DNA of 64,000 nt, from IMG/VR virus record IMGVR_UViG_3300026549_000032, positions 32,001-96,000 of that record; one strand, written 5' to 3'. Below, in pieces: positions 1,365-62,209 of the stretch. The notes below the pieces were generated by a model, which ran no database searches, was not told the DNA's origin, and saw only the letters and a program-made list of their open reading frames with translations. Origin of the DNA: a virus. Its lineage: Duplodnaviria > Caudoviricetes. The translations under genes were made by a program, and so were the position numbers. The first letter of the stretch is position 1; every line of letters starts with the position of its first letter.

Positions 1365-3120
1365 GAAAACAGAGATCTTAGGAACAAAGTCTCTTAATCA
1401 GTGTGATAGTATTAGGCTATACAACACAGAGACTTTTAAGAACCCTAGTATTGTATCGGGATTTGGATTATCAGAGAGTGATGTAGAACTACTCTGTTCC
1501 ACTCCCGATGCTACTAAGGTAGTAGAAATAAATACAATATTATCTAGGTTTACTGAATACGATGCCCTTGAGCCAGATGAAAACTTGGTTTTTACATTTA
1601 ACAATAATGTACCAGGTCTCCTTAATGGACAAGGTTTTGATACAATAATATTTCTCTTCATGGGAGAAATCCTAGGCTATATCTGTCTTCTAAATCCAGT
1701 TGGCAGAATAGTAAATCAATCCGGAGCCTCCACTTATGACTTAAAGAGAACTTATTCAGTAAATACGATATATTTAACCTTGACTAGTGACGGCAATGGT
1801 ATCTTAGTTGACAAGGATATGATCAGTCTTCTTAATAACTTGATACCTATTGCTGAAACTACAGGTCGAGACTTACGAGGGGAAGAGAATTATGACTTCG
1901 CCACGGTAAAAGATATTGAGGGTAGCGTAGATCGATCCTCAAACTATACAATACACTTAGAAGAGTTCCTATCTGGGAGAGATATTTTTACCGATACAAC
2001 AATCTCAACAAACCTTGATACTCCAGGGGAGATTAATATATACAAACTTGGTATTAAACGAAATCTAACCCTAGATAGTGTCTACTCTTCCTTCGAACAT
2101 CACCAGATTGGTTATTACAAAGGAGATCCTAGTATCTACATCTGGAATGATGATGGTGAATATTCAATATTCTCTCTGACAAAGCTTTTAGGAGAATACT
2201 TTGATGACGATAATACCAGACCTCTCTCTTATACAGTTAATAGTGAGATCTCTAAGTCTGAGATTTTCCAAGTACCGTATCTCTATGAAGGACAGCAGCG
2301 ACCAACTATAAGTGGTTTTGCTGGGAAGTACCTGATCTGCAAACTCTCAGGGAAGCAATATCTCCTAGACATTGATAGACAGTCTGGGGAAGATCCCTAT
2401 AACCACCTTTATGAAAAAAATAAAGGGTGGATTAAATGGAAAGACCCAGATACAGGTAAATCATATCCTGTTACAGACTTCTCCGTAGATAGAACAGATC
2501 CCTATTGTAAAGTATCCTTGCCAGAGAAAGATACTTGGGCTTGGACACATTGGACGGACGTTGTTGAAGATGTTAAGTCCCTCAGTGATACTTACTCTGA
2601 TTCTAGTGTAGGTGTTGTGGGTTATAATAAGACCTTCACCGCCAGATATGGTCAGTGGCATGTCACGGAGGATCAAATAGCCAAAACATATTCTGGAATG
2701 ACTAGGTCTGTAGTATTTGCTATCGAGGAGAACGATCCGTTTATTTTAAATGACAAGGCTCTAATTGCTTGGTCGAAGGGAACGGATTCGGAAGGATGTG
2801 ACACTATTACCTATACTCTCTATAACAATGATGGTTATTACATGACTCAGAAATGCTATGATAATGGATCATCTTTGTCAGACGGTGAGTCTTATGGTGA
2901 TAGGTACACAATATACCCAAGCAATTCTCATAAAACCGTTACTTTCCGAGTATCGTCTAGTCATGATACCGATGCAAGTAGTCCTTTAGAAGTTCAGAAT
3001 AGCTTCTTTGCAGGTTATCGGAGGGGTAGTCTTCCTATAACTATGGATGGTTTTAGAGTTATTGGTGCTTTAGCTGGTTTGGTGTTTTATAGAATTGGCA
3101 ATACAATAAATTATCTATAA
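1351..3120 (+). CDS. Hypothetical virion protein (589 aa)
   Basis: Long ORF, coupled to upstream gene; no recognisable motif. Confidence 0.6.
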   Translation: MVASKKTEILGTKSLNQCDSIRLYNTETFKNPSIVSGFGLSESDVELLCSTPDATKVVEINTILSRFTEYDALEPDENLVFTFNNNVPGLLNGQGFDTIIFLFMGEILGYICLLNPVGRIVNQSGASTYDLKRTYSVNTIYLTLTSDGNGILVDKDMISLLNNLIPIAETTGRDLRGEENYDFATVKDIEGSVDRSSNYTIHLEEFLSGRDIFTDTTISTNLDTPGEINIYKLGIKRNLTLDSVYSSFEHHQIGYYKGDPSIYIWNDDGEYSIFSLTKLLGEYFDDDNTRPLSYTVNSEISKSEIFQVPYLYEGQQRPTISGFAGKYLICKLSGKQYLLDIDRQSGEDPYNHLYEKNKGWIKWKDPDTGKSYPVTDFSVDRTDPYCKVSLPEKDTWAWTHWTDVVEDVKSLSDTYSDSSVGVVGYNKTFTARYGQWHVTEDQIAKTYSGMTRSVVFAIEENDPFILNDKALIAWSKGTDSEGCDTITYTLYNNDGYYMTQKCYDNGSSLSDGESYGDRYTIYPSNSHKTVTFRVSSSHDTDASSPLEVQNSFFAGYRRGSLPITMDGFRVIGALAGLVFYRIGNTINYL

Positions 3121-3128
3121 TAAAAAGT

Positions 3129-6100
3129 ATGACGTTAAGATTTAGCGACAATTTTAAAAAAGAAATACAAGAACTTGGCAATGCAGTGCTCTTAAAGGAG
3201 GCTACTCTATTAGGAGGACTTCGAGATGAAGGGACTTTTATAGAGTTTCAATCTCTTTGGAATGAAGAAACAAAGACACTCAGTATAACACTTGATTTGT
3301 CAGAGATCTCAGCCGATCAGGTGGAGGGAGTTAATGTAATTCAAGTTTACTATAGTGATTTGAGTGGTGAGAGAATTGGAGAAGCCTTTCAGTTAAGATC
3401 CCCTAATGATCTACTCCTCTGTCATAAAAAAAGAGATCCAGTTAATTATGATGAGCCTGTTACTTACTTGACTCGTGATTTGAACCACATAACAGTTTAT
3501 TTTCCTTCCACAACCGTGGCTGATATTAAGACTGTCTTGTCAGATGATAACACCAAGTTCTTGGAGAAGTATGCTGGTATGCAGGGTGTTAACACGTTTC
3601 TCGCCAGAGAAGGTCGTTATGAGGAAACTGATTACTTAACAAAAGATTCCTACGAGGCTTACATTCGAGATAGAATATCTCTAACGAATTCAATCCCTCT
3701 GTACCTCGATAAAAACGGCGAGAAAGTAACTAGCATATCAACATACAAACACTATAAGAAGATAGAAATTTACTCTGAGGGAGATACTCCACAAACAACT
3801 AGTGGTAGTAAGACCAAGTATACTATAAATAATGGCGGAACAGCTAATATTGTAGGAACTGTATTCTATGACCTATATTCTGTCAGTAATGGTGTGTATA
3901 CACTAGAAAGGGAAAACTTACGAATGGATCTTTCCCCGACTACACTGGTTCAGCTAGATATGGCTACAGGTACGCCCTTGGAAGAAACTACTTCAGCAAT
4001 TACTATCGATCCTTTCCAGAAAGCTATTACTTTCGATAGTGATCAAACATCAGAGATCAATGACTTTGCATGTCTCTTGACTTTCACTCCGGAAATTAAC
4101 GATGATAATTTAGGAATGATTGCAGGTAACTCGTTTACCATTAAATCAAACGTCGTCGAGTTCGTCACTTATCTGAGGTGGAATGTAGAGTATGGATCAT
4201 CCTTGTACGAGGATGGAGTTGTTGTTCTAGTATTTGATTCTCCTAGGGGTTCTGGCTTATGGAATTTTGAGGAGGATGAAGATTCAAGAGAAAACTGTAT
4301 AACTGTTTTTAGCGAATCTAATATAGACCCTCAGATGGATATAGTTATCACGCCAGAGGATCCAGACCGTTTTAATAGTTACTTTGAAATCATTCTTCCA
4401 CAGGAAGGTGTTTTTGAGTCATCTAATAAAAGATGGAGATACGATATAAAGATCGTTACTACACAAGACAATCTCACAGATAAGTGGTGGTACCCGTTAG
4501 GTCCTGATGGCAAGGGAACTATGGTTCTCTCTAGGATCACAGTTAATTCTGGCACAAAGAATGCGGCTTCTGATATACGTTTCTATTGTGTACAGAGACC
4601 AACTTGGCCATTAGTTATTGCTGGTAGTAGTGATCAGACTTCAGAAACATTCTCAACTGGAATTGGTCCGAAGGAGGTTAAGTTCTACCTGGATCGTCCT
4701 ATAGATAATTATACAACTTGGGAGGTAGATATGTCTGGCTTAGATTCAGACCTCTTGATAACTTCCCAAACACACGACCTAGTGGATTATGATTCGGGAA
4801 CAGTTGTAAGCCCAACCTCTGCTATCTCGGCCAAGACTATGGTCTATGCGGCCCATAGCGAAGAGGTGAATCTTGGTAGTGTAACATTCCGTAGAAGGAA
4901 TAGAGCAGGTGCAGCAGATTTTTCTTACTGGAAAGACCTAATCTATTGTCATCCAGTTAACGATATTACGATAGAGTTTTTTATTGATAGGTTAGATTTC
5001 GAGGCTGAGTCTGTAACAGCGGACCCTGATCGAGTGAACTATCCTGACGTTCCTAGTGTTCCCACTAAGTATTATTACCCAGTGGAAGATACGTATAAGA
5101 GATTATATATTTTTAATCCAGGTGAGACTAAGAGCTTTATCTTGAATACTGCTACTACCACTGGACTTAATGTCAATATGTCTGTTGACTTCCAGAGCAT
5201 ATTCGAACAGTTTTTTACAACTTCTGTCACCAAGAAAACTGAAGGATCGTTTAAGGTAGAAATAACAGCTAAACCACGAAATCCAGAATATGACCAGGCA
5301 AGTTGGTGGCCGAAGAACACAGAAGGCAAACCCATCGAGCTATTCATAGGGAATGAAACATTCTACTGTGTAGTAAGGCCTAACCTTCCTGAGCTTATGT
5401 TCTATATCCCTGAGGGAGACTCCTACAAGGTTGTTTCTGAGGTTGAGATGACTTCAGAAAAGAACCAAATAGAAGGACCAAATAATACGATTGCTCATCG
5501 TCAGATAGTATATGTCGTATCTAATGTTCTCTCTAGTGAGTTCCCTGGTTGGACAGTATTTTCAAAGGATAATGAGATGGAGGTATATTCAGTTAACCCG
5601 TCGGATAATACCGGTTCGTCCATGTCTGGAACTGTCCTCGATAGTAATATAGATAATTGGCCTAGTAAAGGTCAACAATATACAATGCTTACCACAAATA
5701 CTCTTCCCTACGACGTAACAACTGTTAAATTTGATGACTTGGTTGTTCGACGTACGGCAGGCACTGGTTTTGTGGATGAAATAGATGGTTTGTTTGAGGA
5801 TTGGAGAAATCAGTTAGTAGATAATACTTATTCACTAGGTCTCTCCTTAGCTCCTACAGGGAAATCAGATAAAATAACAGTTCAGTACTTAACATCAGGT
5901 GGTAATAGAGAGGACTACATTGAAGGTCTCCCCTTAGAACTTGATTATATAGGACTATATAGGATCTATGTTAAGAGTGAGATGGGATTCCGAGTTTCGC
6001 TCCCCAGTAGTAACAAGAGAGATGGCTTCTACTTCTTTAATTCCTCCGGGAATGAGATTAAGTGGGATGTATTGACTCTCGATGAAGGCTCTTTTGATAC

Positions 6101-58151: not shown

Positions 58152-58943
58152 ATGGACAATACGTTTAATTATCTCAATCTTTGCAGTATTTATAGAACAG
58201 AAGGATATGCCAACTATTCGTTAGGTAGCTATCCTTGTTTCGCAAAGACTCTCAATCGATGGGGCAACCATGATGCTAACAACGTTCAACGCGTGCATTA
58301 TGAGATCTACTTGATAAAAGGCTTAGATTCAATCAAAGCTAACAATAGAAATAATGCATGTCTCCTGAACAAGAAGGAGATTGAAGGCTGGCTTCAGATA
58401 GCTAAAACCTACCATCCATTCAAGTATAAACTGGAAAACAGTGAGTATAAGTTGGAAGGTAAGAAGTACGAAGCTTGGCGCTTGCACATCGATATGGAGG
58501 GTAATTATACTCAGCACAAGTGGATCTTGACATCCCTGCGTGGATTTTATGAATATCCGTTTAATATGTGGTTTATTGACGCACATCGCCTCAGGGCAAC
58601 GGATCCTCAGAAGTTCCGTGGAGAGTCTATCCTCAATCTCATGGAGACTATCATCTCATCATTCCCCAACAGTTATCAGACTGATCAGTCACTGCTCCTG
58701 CCTAATCGTCAGTTCCATAGCAAGAACTATGTGAAGAAGAAGATTGGTGAAGGAATCCAGTACATCACGAAGATCTACAACGAGGAAACAACGAGAGACT
58801 TTAAGCGAATTGCTGATGCAGGCGCCACTTGTCTCCACTCCTTCGATTGGTGGATGAATGAGGAGTCTTTTGCAGAACGAGCAAAGATCTATCATGAAAA
58901 TTACGATAAGATTAAGAAACAAACGAAGCCAGAAGCAGTATGA
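58152..58943 (+). CDS. Hypothetical protein heading the amidoligase cluster (263 aa)
   Basis: ATGA-coupled to the downstream glutamine amidotransferase. Confidence 0.65.
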   Translation: MDNTFNYLNLCSIYRTEGYANYSLGSYPCFAKTLNRWGNHDANNVQRVHYEIYLIKGLDSIKANNRNNACLLNKKEIEGWLQIAKTYHPFKYKLENSEYKLEGKKYEAWRLHIDMEGNYTQHKWILTSLRGFYEYPFNMWFIDAHRLRATDPQKFRGESILNLMETIISSFPNSYQTDQSLLLPNRQFHSKNYVKKKIGEGIQYITKIYNEETTRDFKRIADAGATCLHSFDWWMNEESFAERAKIYHENYDKIKKQTKPEAV

Positions 58944-59566
58944 AAGTATTCGTAGTGGGACCCAGTGTCGGGTATTCAAGATTTATTGAGGACCTGGAAC
59001 TGGTTGACGACATGAAGGACGCACAAGTAGTCCTTTTCACTGGAGGCGAGGATATCAATCCTGAATTGTATGGATGTAAGAAACATCCGTCTACTTGGTT
59101 CAATACCAAGCGTGACCAATTCGAGGTTGAGTCTTTCAAGAAAGTCGCCTCAGACCAACTTTGCGTGGGTATATGCCGTGGATTTCAGCTTTTCTCAGCT
59201 ATGTATGGCGGGAAGTTAGCTCAAGACGTATCAGGTCACTGGTGCGGACGGAGTCACAGCATAACCAACGGAAAGATAACTTATGAGATTACGTCTCTCC
59301 ATCATCAGATGGTATATCCATTTAACCTGGATCAGAAGGATTTCGAAATCCTCTACTGGGCTGAAGGAATAAGCCACTACTATGAGGGAGATGGAATTGA
59401 TCCTAAGTTCTTTAGTATGTTTGGCGAGCCTGAGGTAGCTCTCTTCCATAGGGAGGGACTTCCGACGTGTCTTGGTGTGCAAGGTCACCCTGAGATGATG
59501 GCAGGTTCACCAGTTGCGAAGATGATTAATGATTTAATTCGTCAAAACATAAAGAGATGTCAATAA
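58940..59566 (+). CDS. Class I glutamine amidotransferase / peptidase C26 (gamma-glutamyl hydrolase-like)
   Basis: FTGGEDINP.LYG, RD..E, GICRGFQ (Cys nucleophile), SLHHQ, GVQGHPE (His-Glu). Confidence 0.9.
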   Translation: MKVFVVGPSVGYSRFIEDLELVDDMKDAQVVLFTGGEDINPELYGCKKHPSTWFNTKRDQFEVESFKKVASDQLCVGICRGFQLFSAMYGGKLAQDVSGHWCGRSHSITNGKITYEITSLHHQMVYPFNLDQKDFEILYWAEGISHYYEGDGIDPKFFSMFGEPEVALFHREGLPTCLGVQGHPEMMAGSPVAKMINDLIRQNIKRCQ

Positions 59567-60619
59567 AAGATATAACAATTGGAGCAGATCCTGAGTTGTT
59601 TATCATAAACAAGAAGACAGGAAAGGTCGTATCATCCATAGGATTGATCCCTGGTGAAAAGGGTAATCCTTGGGTAGGCGAAGACATGCCTACAGGATTT
59701 GGCTTGGAGATTGATAATATCTTGGCAGAATTCAACATTCCTCCTGTTACGGACGGACTCAGTTTCGTCAATAACATCGAGTATATGAAGAAGTATATTG
59801 AAAGATTTGTAAGTGAGAAGGACCCGAATCTCGGAATCCTTTGCGCTGCAAGTCAATCAGTGCCATCAGATCAGCTCCAGTCAGACGAGGCAAAACAGTT
59901 CGGCTGCAGCGTCGACTACAATGCCTATACGGGAGGTCCTAATCCTAAGCCAAAGGGTGAGACGACAAACTTAAGAAGTGCAGGTCAACGAAGGCCTGAA
60001 GCGCAGTAATGCGCCGTTGAATAAATCAAAAACGGTAAACGAGTAGATAACTAGTCTTGAATACCGTGCTAACCTAGGGAACTAAAGAACCCTAGACAGT
60101 GTAACGCATAGAGGTTGAACCTCATCAAACGATGAGAATAAAATATCTCCACGAGTGATTTACTCCAGGATTGCCTGGATGAAAATATATGCTGAACTTA
60201 CGGAAATTATCTAGGACCGTAAGAGCTATAGGATAAAAAGCCTATAGGGTAACAAATTGTTTCATATCCATATTGGATACAAAAACTATAATGCAGATAC
60301 CTCTATCCAGTTGGTCAAATATCTGGATCAGTATCTCGGAATCCCGTCGATTATTCGAGACCAGGACAAAAAGAGAAGATCTCTATACGGTAAAGCCGGT
60401 TGTTTCCGACTTACGGGCTACGGAGTAGAGTACCGAGTACTATCTTCTGCCCTCATGAAAGATGAGGAGAGCCTGGATTTCGTATGGCAGAGAACGATGC
60501 GTGCCATTCAGATGTATAATGAAGGTGCAAGTCTCTTGCCAACTGCAGTCGTGCAAGATATCATTAACAATACAAAAGTTAAGACCGCTGAACAGGTCAT
60601 TGCCGACTACAATCTCTAA
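59557..60619 (+). CDS. phiEco32-like COOH-NH2 ligase type 2, spliced: join(59557..59985,60260..60619), 262 aa
   Basis: IGADPELF, DNILAEFNIPP, FGC..DYNAY, RSAG|FHIHIGY, RRSLYGKAG.FR...YGVEYRVLS; motif restored in frame by removing the intron. Confidence 0.9.
59986..60259 (+). ncRNA. Group I self-splicing intron (274 nt, no homing endonuclease)
   Basis: P1 CAGGU/GCCUG with U.G at the 5' splice site; P2 GCGCA-GUAA-UGCGC; P3 UAAAUCA/UGAUUUA; P4 ACGGUA/UACCGU; P7 A(C)GCAUA/UAUGCU; P8 UCCAGG/CCUGGA; P9 CUUACGG/CCGUAAG and CUAUAGG/CCUAUAG; terminal omega-G at 60259. Confidence 0.92.
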
Positions 60620-60627
60620 AGATATAC

Positions 60628-60730
60628 CCGCTGCGAGGAGAGTTTCCGCACTTAACCGTGTGGGCTCTCATTCAGCGGTGATAGAAAATAAATCATTAAT
60701 TTAGTTATAAACAAAAAATTTTAGCAGCGG
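60628..60730 (+). promoter_or_regulatory. Structured intergenic RNA element upstream of GATase-II
   Basis: CCGCTG..GAGAGT..CCGCAC/GTGTGG.GCTCTC..CAGCGG long hairpin; second GCAGCGG immediately before the ATG. Confidence 0.55.
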
Positions 60731-62209
60731 ATGTGTGGCATATTTTCGATAATTAACTCGAAACCACGTAAATTTGACTATACGACCTTTTGTGTATTAG
60801 GAGTTAATAATGACTCTCGCGGAGGTGATAGTTGTGGAGTATTCATTGACGGACTTTGGGAAGTCGGAGTAGATAAAAAGAAAGAATTCCGAGACTTTTT
60901 CAAGGAGAGTTCCGTCCTGAATCGAATTAAAGGTAAGAACGTAAGTATCGCCCTCGGACATTGTCGAAAGGCATCTGTCGGTGGCGTATCAGATAAGACG
61001 GCTCAGCCTGTAGTCTTAACGGACAAGGCAGGGAACGCCAAGTTTGTAATGATTCACAATGGCACCATTCATAACTATGAAGAGCTCGCCAAGAAGTATA
61101 TCCCGAAGATAGATATCAAGGGTCTGACCGATTCTCAGGTCATGGCTAGAATATTCTATTACAAGGGCTATGACTGTCTGTCCGAATATAACGGCGGATC
61201 AGTATTCTTGATTGTGGATTATAGACAACCTGAGCCAAGAATCCTCATATTCAGAGGAGCTAGTAAGAAGTATTCAACTTCTACAACCATCGAGGAAGAG
61301 AGACCATTCTACTTCATCCAGAACAAGAATGAGTTTGTCTGCTCTTCCATCGACAAGTATTTAGAGGTACTCCGTCCAGACGATGAAGTATTCACCGTTG
61401 AGGATAATGTCCTGATTCAGGTACTTCCTGGTGACATTGTAAATGTTAAGTCTTATGACCGTAGCAATTGTCAGCAGAGCAAGGTTGTCAACTATACTAC
61501 CAGTAATTCTTATGGAACTGTTTGGCAGGGCAACCAAGGCGGAAGTACTTATGGTGGCACTTATTATCAGGGTGGTGGCTATCGTGGAGGTGCTGGTGTT
61601 GGACATACAACTCCGGCCGTTGGTTCTGAATTTAACAGAGGAGGCACGTCAACGGGGAGCTCTATTGACAGAGTCACCTCGATTGGGCCCAAGTTTCTCA
61701 GACCCGACAAAACCACAAACATCTACTTCACAGACAAAGCCAAAACAATCCCCGCCCACGGACAGCTCTCAATCAACGACTTCGGCCGCATGTATACAGG
61801 AGAAGCTGCCAAAGAGGAATCCTCACATACAGTCAAAGAGATCTGGTTTTTTAACGGGATTGCTCTCTTGGATGTTGAGTATTTTAGATTCCTCGAGTTC
61901 GCATTGAAGAAGTCGAAGATGAGTAAGGAAGAGTTTATGACGAAGTATCAGAACCTGATCAGGTTTGTGAGCCTCGATAAGCTCTACTCTATGAACGGAT
62001 CATTCCATCTTGCGACTGGCTTCTCCTCTCACAGACCATTCACTGGTGAATTCCAGATGATAGGTGATTCATTCGTTAGCGAGTTCAAGGACGGTCAGAC
62101 TTCATGTTATCGAAACATAAAGAACTATGATCATCCATTGGACCTATTGGGAACCAAAGGAATAAGTGTAACCAAACTCTATAAACGATGCAAGTCATTG
62201 ATGAAGTAA
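60731..62209 (+). CDS. Class II (Ntn) glutamine amidotransferase
   Basis: N-terminal MCGIF, RGGDSCG, GHCRKAS, AQP, HNGTIHN, DSQV, ERP. Confidence 0.9.
   Translation: MCGIFSIINSKPRKFDYTTFCVLGVNNDSRGGDSCGVFIDGLWEVGVDKKKEFRDFFKESSVLNRIKGKNVSIALGHCRKASVGGVSDKTAQPVVLTDKAGNAKFVMIHNGTIHNYEELAKKYIPKIDIKGLTDSQVMARIFYYKGYDCLSEYNGGSVFLIVDYRQPEPRILIFRGASKKYSTSTTIEEERPFYFIQNKNEFVCSSIDKYLEVLRPDDEVFTVEDNVLIQVLPGDIVNVKSYDRSNCQQSKVVNYTTSNSYGTVWQGNQGGSTYGGTYYQGGGYRGGAGVGHTTPAVGSEFNRGGTSTGSSIDRVTSIGPKFLRPDKTTNIYFTDKAKTIPAHGQLSINDFGRMYTGEAAKEESSHTVKEIWFFNGIALLDVEYFRFLEFALKKSKMSKEEFMTKYQNLIRFVSLDKLYSMNGSFHLATGFSSHRPFTGEFQMIGDSFVSEFKDGQTSCYRNIKNYDHPLDLLGTKGISVTKLYKRCKSLMK

Follow-up and report, generated by a model that had tools for sequence, protein, structure and literature searches.

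An uncultivated rumen phage whose COOH-NH2 ligase gene carries an ORF-less, very probably functional IA-type group I intron

An insertion in a COOH-NH2 ligase gene

The window analysed here, a 64,000-nt stretch of a 218-kb virus record (IMG/VR IMGVR_UViG_3300026549_000032), carries a ligase/GATase gene cluster headed by an ORF of 263 aa (58152-58943), which had no Pfam or PHROG match and whose position is conserved in three related contigs (L124, L126 and L128). PHROG searches with ten other proteins of the window gave no indication of the phage's lineage. The 263-aa ORF is followed by a Peptidase_C26/GATase gene (58940-59566), uninterrupted in the window, and by two ORFs at 59557-60009 (150 aa) and 60257-60619 (120 aa) that border an insert at 59986-60259. 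The second of the two opens at the TTG at 60257 and matched Pfam PF14395 (phiEco32-like COOH-NH2 ligase) over profile positions 97-164 of 254. Inside the insert no ORF of at least 30 aa was found on either strand.

In a search with exon 1 (Table 1) among longer proteins, ligases of about 262-263 aa that are contiguous across the split numbered in the hundreds, and the top match was P0001 (262 aa, 99% identical). Exon 1 was 99% identical to residues 1-143 of P0001 and exon 2 was identical to residues 144-262. Exon 1 ends in ...TNLRSAG and exon 2 starts with FHIHIG, with neither gap nor overlap between them, and the two motifs were contiguous in all eight aligned homologues. The full-length ligase homologues, taken as the best 120 of 658 matches, were likewise single chains, about 262 aa long and unbroken at the motif.

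L005, the contig that encodes P0001, represents a natural intron-less allele with 98.4% DNA identity to the window and aligns to 59217-59985 and 60260-62000. Since its bases 769 and 770, which flank the junction, abut with nothing between them, the insert is exactly 59986-60259, or 274 nt, and the boundary cannot be slid because the flanking bases differ. Excision gives an in-frame ...AGT GCA GGT|TTT CAT ATC... and a 262-aa product. The ligase gene was uninterrupted in all nine loci found to be related via P0001. A reading made earlier from the sequence alone had taken the two ORFs for halves of one ligase, had predicted that removal of the insert would join RSAG and FHIHIG in frame to give 262 aa and had proposed a comparison with intron-less homologues; the alignments to P0001 and L005, the latter joining 59985 to 60260 identically, and the contiguity of the motif in the homologues bore this out. 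The stretch 59986-60259 is therefore a clean insertion that splits the COOH-NH2 ligase gene at a conserved motif.

Table 1. Coordinates of the exons, the intron and its structural elements in the window
Feature	Position	Strand	Remarks
Exon 1, COOH-NH2 ligase	59557-59985	+	143 codons up to ...RSAG; final base U59985
Group I intron, 274 nt, ORF-less	59986-60259	+	Insertion relative to L005; covariation; 199 bits with family model R1; RNA contigs
Exon 2, COOH-NH2 ligase	60260-60619	+	FHIHIG...; 119 codons and stop
P1	Exon CAGGU 59981-59985 with guide GCCUG 59994-59998	+	U59985.G59994 wobble at 5' splice site
P10 half of internal guide, GAAG	59990-59993	+	Pairs UUUC 60260-60263 at start of exon 2
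P2 hairpin, GCGCA/UGCGC, GUAA tetraloop	60001-60014	+	Sequence; orthologues
P3, UAAAUCA/UGAUUUA	60022-60028 with 60156-60162	+	Pseudoknot with P7; 7 pairs
P4	60032-60037 with 60062-60067	+	Encloses AA joiners and P5/P5a
P5/P5a hairpin, 20 nt	60040-60059	+	From sequence, outside the covariation test
P6	60068-60070 with 60098-60100	+	100% paired
P6a	60074-60079 with 60090-60095	+	6/6 pairs vary on both sides
P7	A60104 and 60106-60110 (GCAUA) with 60188-60193 (UAUGCU)	+	Bulged C60105
P7.1	60111-60115 with 60145-60149	+	4/5 pairs vary on both sides
P7.2	60121-60126 with 60131-60136	+	5/6 pairs vary on both sides
P8 hairpin region	60163-60181	+	Pairs 60164-60169 with 60174-60179
J8/7, A-rich	60182-60187	+	Directly after P8
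P9	60197-60203 with 60217-60223	+	Covariation
P9.1	60226-60232 with 60241-60247	+	Covariation
Terminal guanosine (omega-G) at 3' splice site	60259	+	Sequence and L005; 5/5 orthologous introns

Structure of the insert and covariation of its helices

The insert folded better than its shuffled versions (z = -5.06). A structure was written from the window sequence and compared with an alignment (A3) of 27 non-identical ORF-less members of the family described below, covering P3 to the 3' end. Across these 27 relatives 97.3% of the cells of the 58 pairs in 11 helices were paired and 43 of the 58 pairs varied on both sides. Column shuffles reached 73.1%, with none of 500 attaining the observed value, while sliding one strand gave 31-42%.

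Among the core helices, P3 was 99.5% paired with five of its seven pairs varying on both sides, and P4 was 100% paired with an A-U/U-A swap in ten of the 27 sequences. P7 was also 100% paired; its G-C pair (alignment columns 129/263) was invariant in 27/27, column 128 beside it was unpaired, and three of its pairs covary. Variants of this helix included a change from A[C]GCAUA/UAUGCU to G[A]GCAUA/UAUGCC in five sequences and, in one sequence each, GACUA/UAGUC, which is the classical P7, and GAGUA/UACUC. The pair G60106-C60192 is a candidate for the guanosine-binding pair, a role drawn from the group I literature. The IA-type extension P7.1/P7.2 (60111-60149), lying between P7 (5' strand) and P3 (3' strand), had nine of 11 pairs varying on both sides. 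All five pairs of the family P8 covary, with the window copy offset by one bulged base from the family register. In P9 and P9.1 together, 13 of 14 pairs varied on both sides and one P9 pair was invariant.

P1, P2 and P10 lie outside the covariation count and were inspected by eye in five orthologous introns from the same site. P1 showed a compensatory change from CAGGU/GCCUG in the window to CGGGU/GCCCG in L124 and L128. The P10 half of the guide was GAAG or GAAA in five of six orthologues, and the GGGG of L125 leaves only G-C and wobble pairs. The stems of P2 vary yet remain paired and the loop was always a GNRA; in the window the exon-1 frame terminates within this loop, at the TAA at 60007-60009. 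The hallmarks listed by the sequence-only reading, namely the U.G pair of P1, P10, P2, P3, P4, P7, P8, P9, CUCAUC/GAUGAG between P7 and P3' and the terminal G, were all present. By each structural criterion tested, the insert is a group I intron. Its description as ORF-less and IA-like was likewise upheld, by the lack of any ORF of 30 aa or more, by P7.1/P7.2 and by the similarity to the Twort introns given below.

Relatives of the intron in other phages and in the same gene cluster

By BLASTN, the 3' 160 nt of the insert, ending at 60259, was 70-82% identical to non-coding stretches that interrupt genes of other phages. Family copies were located between the halves of the tape-measure gene of Staphylococcus phage 6ec, right after an HNH endonuclease ORF; within the major capsid gene of bajarodcaudo virus 1, adjoining an 'intron associated endonuclease'; and between tail genes of C. 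difficile phage phiCD211, beside an annotated Intron_gpI. The family carries the signature UGAAMC ... GAAUAWAAU ... CCACGAG around the nested P7.1/P7.2, and a scan of IMG/VR with the motif GAATAWAAT, 3-6 bases and CCACGAGTG found more than 100 loci among the matches listed. The closest full-length match to the window copy among the fetched loci was only about 75% identical, and an exact 24-mer of the window P7.2 region had no other copy in IMG/VR. The introns with GAAUAWAAU-N(3-6)-CCACGAGUG (6ec, bajarodcaudo virus, phiCD211) share the helices of the window copy, with compensatory changes. Unlike the window copy in its ligase, they reside in other host genes (tape measure, capsid and others), and many hold HNH, LAGLIDADG or other ORFs in the loops of P5, P6, P8 or P9.

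R1, a 242-position covariance model built from the family, scored the window intron within the 177-223 bits of its training members and found no second copy in the phage's own genome. Two loci were unusual in their arrangement. One IMG/VR contig (L108, 4111-6527) contains four family copies within 2.5 kb, scoring 93-177 bits with R1; they presumably represent four introns of a single gene. In the phiCD211 locus (L003) the family copy (1328-1581, 210 bits) ends 20 nt before the annotated Intron_gpI (1602-1867), and the tail genes there may be separated by two introns nearly back to back.

The Rfam screens were silent. No group I match was obtained for the whole window at the gathering score, nothing including RF00028 was returned for the 451-nt slice 59900-60350 at E<=10, and RF00028 had no match in the whole 218-kb record. 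The sequence-only reading had proposed RF00028 as a check and had counted the lack of a covariance-model match against itself; formally that result was obtained. It was however not particular to the window. RF00028 at its gathering score overlooked all 15 of a set of family copies with R1 scores of 177-223 bits; it missed the 6ec tape-measure and phiCD211 copies while detecting the Twort and T4 introns, and Rfam returned nothing on four loci (L001-L004), where even the Intron_gpI match annotated in the phiCD211 record was not reproduced with Rfam 15. Because all 15 clear relatives were missed as well, while R1 links the family to Twort, the silence of RF00028 is read as a false negative and attributed to the limited sensitivity of the model rather than to an absent fold.

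In the Twort genome R1 detected the orf142 introns I2 (62 bits, E 2.5e-18), I3 (39 bits, E 8.9e-11) and I1 (19 bits, E 3.4e-4), and RF00028 was also above its cut-off at these introns, at about 100 bits. The Twort orf142 introns are self-splicing and have been placed in IA2, a subgroup traditionally linked to phages (PMC3984707, PMC11878797), and I2 is cited in PMC3984707 as the crystallised Twort ribozyme. R1 aligns end to end with I2 and I3, and the Twort introns, like the window copy, are short ORF-less introns of phage mRNAs. I2 and the window family share P4, P6/P6a, P7 with its bulge, P8, P9, P9.1 and a ...GUAACAnnAUUG 3' tail, and the P9 and P9.1 of the window copy align to those of I2. 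In contrast, the P7.1/P7.2 region could not be aligned to Twort, where 36 R1 positions are replaced by 26 or 69 nt, the P7 of the window family is mostly GCAUA/UAUGC and not GACUA/UAGUC, its signature is its own, and RF00028 recognises the Twort introns and not this family. The insert thus appears IA2-like and most like Twort IA2, an assignment that follows from the similarity to Twort and from the placing of the latter in IA2 by PMC11878797 and PMC3984707. The IA2 introns of T4 td, nrdB and nrdD belong to the same general class of phage mRNA group I introns in conserved enzyme motifs, although they are located in nucleotide-metabolism genes and not in a ligase. R1 had no match in T4 at E<=1, and any relationship to the T4 introns is therefore at most remote.

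The ligase site itself is occupied repeatedly. A search for short ligase forms returned many proteins of 144-167 aa that end after RSAG or RSCG and a few foreign residues, as well as another group, of about 201 aa, whose members stop after ...CFRLTxYG. Among the contigs of six short forms, five (L124, L125, L126, L128 and L129) contained a family intron at the identical point of the ligase, with ...GGU|...G|UUUCA as in the window, the same P1/P10 logic and scores of 157-194 bits. Those of L126, L128 and L129 lack an ORF and measure 275-278 nt, with scores of 191-194 bits. The introns of L124 and L125 are 1157 and 1168 nt long (157-159 bits) and hold a LAGLIDADG ORF of 263-318 aa between the strands of P5, which in the window is a 20-nt hairpin; their matches to LAGLIDADG_3 (PF14528) scored 43.9 and 44.7 bits, the cut-off being 22.5. 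Since relatives at the same site are either LAGLIDADG-bearing or ORF-less, comparison of these sequences identifies the window copy as an apparent endonuclease-free form of a homing intron. In the proposed search for a free-standing endonuclease in the phage's own genome, only a distant LAGLIDADG (27% identity) was found, elsewhere than in the intron. Its ORF is located outside the window on the minus strand (G000:C1:128978-129565), where neither RF00028 nor R1 detected intron RNA.

A second homing site of the ligase is located after ...CFRLTGYG and before VEYRVLSS (60424|60425), where the window is uninterrupted. It is filled by LAGLIDADG introns in L127 (about 3100-4400) and L129 (3384-4600), and the codon before it is GGA| in the window and GGT| in L005 and L127. 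The exon stretches of the window and L005 differ at about 30 nucleotides, all but one of them synonymous. Seventeen purely synonymous changes fall within the 40 nt of 60409-60448, centred on the second site, and of the 13 differences in the 769 nt that precede the intron nine fall 15-78 nt before the 5' splice site (59907-59970); exon 2 shows none in its first 148 nt. These patches around both sites look like the result of co-conversion or target-site escape tied to homing, as we infer from their distribution.

The GATase gene upstream is also split by group I introns in some related phages, namely in L129 (1874-2127), L127 (1142-1396 and 1996-2134) and L006 (346-491), with R1 scores of 37-100 bits and an RF00028 score of 64.7 bits for L129. 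The LAGLIDADG ORFs of L125 (3076-4029), L127 (3210-4079) and L129 (3486-4328) contain in-frame TAG and translate only with TAG read as Q, which suggests stop-codon recoding in these phages; the long ORFs of the window are open under table 11.

RNA evidence, alternative explanations and proposed splicing

Gut runs of bovine and goat origin contained the stretch. Four rumen metatranscriptome assemblies, representing three samples and two studies (X2 and X8 are one sample, X6 and X10 are from another study), were compared over 59200-61000 as assembled contigs, not raw reads. In each of the four, one contig skipped exactly 59986-60259, with 105-255 nt on the shorter side. The exons of X2 and X8 had no differences from the window over this region, and their joined contigs carried the window bases at all positions that distinguish L005. 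In the four assemblies the intron was assembled separately from the exons; in X2 it formed a contig of 59995-60253 with a word depth of 120 relative to 289 for the exons and without mismatches, exon flank or loose end. Gaps in the cover by RNA contigs, such as 60176-60236 in X8 and X10, carry no meaning. In eight runs guessed to be DNA, the share of the words present was about 0.75-0.77, as expected if the intron is missing. A joined contig alone is no proof of splicing, because DNA may be present in RNA libraries and alleles without the intron occur as DNA. Intron contigs that stop inside the intron are, however, not expected from DNA or unspliced RNA, which would run into the exons. The RNA contigs are therefore suggestive rather than decisive of ligated exons together with an excised intron.

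These observations bear most directly on the idea that the insert is a decayed, non-splicing group I relic in a ligase pseudogene, with the joined RNA contigs derived from co-resident intron-less variants, which we regard as very unlikely. Intron-less alleles do exist in nature and probably in many of the bovine-gut DNA runs (shares of about 0.76), a lack of endonuclease is the state that precedes degeneration in the homing cycle (PMC3984707), and RF00028 was silent. Against this, all core helices are intact and the R1 score lies inside the training range, and both exons are open and encode a protein 99% identical to that of the intact allele, with nearly all differences synonymous. Moreover, the joined contigs of X2 and X8 agree with the intron-bearing allele at every diagnostic position, and these RNA libraries contain the intron in abundance but lack the exon-intron junction that unspliced RNA or DNA would supply.

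It is far less plausible still that the gene is truly split, with two ORFs translated as separate subunits around a structured RNA spacer, for although the TTG at 60257 opens an ORF spanning exon 2, the best 120 of 658 homologues are single chains, the break falls inside the most conserved motif, the spacer holds a covarying ribozyme core homologous to self-splicing introns, and the RNA contigs remove it precisely. Some other kind of insertion, whether a miniature transposon, a group II intron fragment or a translational bypass element, was raised since RF00028 had failed and had nothing specific in its favour. We give it hardly any credence: the boundaries show neither target-site duplication nor terminal inverted repeats, 274 nt is too short for a group II intron and nothing in Rfam matched, and every helix tested has group I structure. 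The two-subunit ligase, the transposon, the group II intron and the translational bypass were accordingly rejected on the basis of L005, covariation, Twort homology and the RNA contigs.

We consider it very likely that the ORF-less insert at 59986-60259 functions as a group I intron of phage IA type, most like Twort IA2, within the COOH-NH2 ligase gene of this uncultivated rumen phage. In the mechanism that we infer, the transcript would fold into a group I core of P3-P9 with a P3/P7 pseudoknot, and the internal guide (59990-59998) would pair with the last five bases of exon 1 as P1 and with the first four bases of exon 2 as P10. Free guanosine, putatively bound at G60106-C60192 of P7, would attack after U59985; G60259 would then replace it and the 3'-OH of exon 1 would attack after G60259, ligating the exons into an mRNA for the 262-aa ligase with RSAG-FHIHIG restored. 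Unspliced RNA would yield only a product truncated at 150 aa because of the stop at 60007-60009. The window intron would have no mobility of its own, since it lacks a homing endonuclease; the versions with LAGLIDADG in the P5 loop in related phages presumably spread the intron by homing into the conserved ligase motif.

The sequence-only reading had called the ligase an unusual host. A literature search for a group I intron and a COOH-NH2 ligase together found no paper. The host is less unusual than supposed, as other phage genes hold such introns and the ligase site is recurrent in the clade. Capsid, tail and tape-measure genes are documented hosts of phage group I introns (PMC3706429), and the location of such introns in conserved motifs of conserved genes is textbook knowledge (PMC3984707). 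The intron of the COOH-NH2 ligase is a new address and not a new kind, an ordinary member of a well-known class, and the understanding of how group I introns work is unchanged. What is added is modest: the Rfam blind spot for a subfamily of more than 100 copies among the matches listed, a picture of the ligase/GATase cluster as an intron hotspot and support from metatranscriptomes. The wider proposal, in which a coherent IA2-like subfamily of that size, its systematic omission by RF00028, an intron hotspot in the ligase/GATase cluster of this clade of large gut phages (two homing sites in the ligase and at least one in the GATase gene) and a splicing-dependent pathway would all hold together, is put forward tentatively and seems to us somewhat more doubtful than probable.

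For the phage itself the annotation is corrected, as two 'hypothetical' half-genes become one intact 262-aa COOH-NH2 ligase, and since they do, its amide-ligase pathway is probably functional. The presence and absence of the intron, versions with and without endonuclease at one site and synonymous patches at two sites allow the homing cycle in gut phages to be studied in a natural system of compact size. For the family, routine screening with Rfam yields a false negative that extends to an abundant subfamily of phage group I introns as a whole, and R1 and A3 could recover many more split phage genes; if the wider proposal is true, genes split in this manner pass unrecognised in phage and metagenome annotation.
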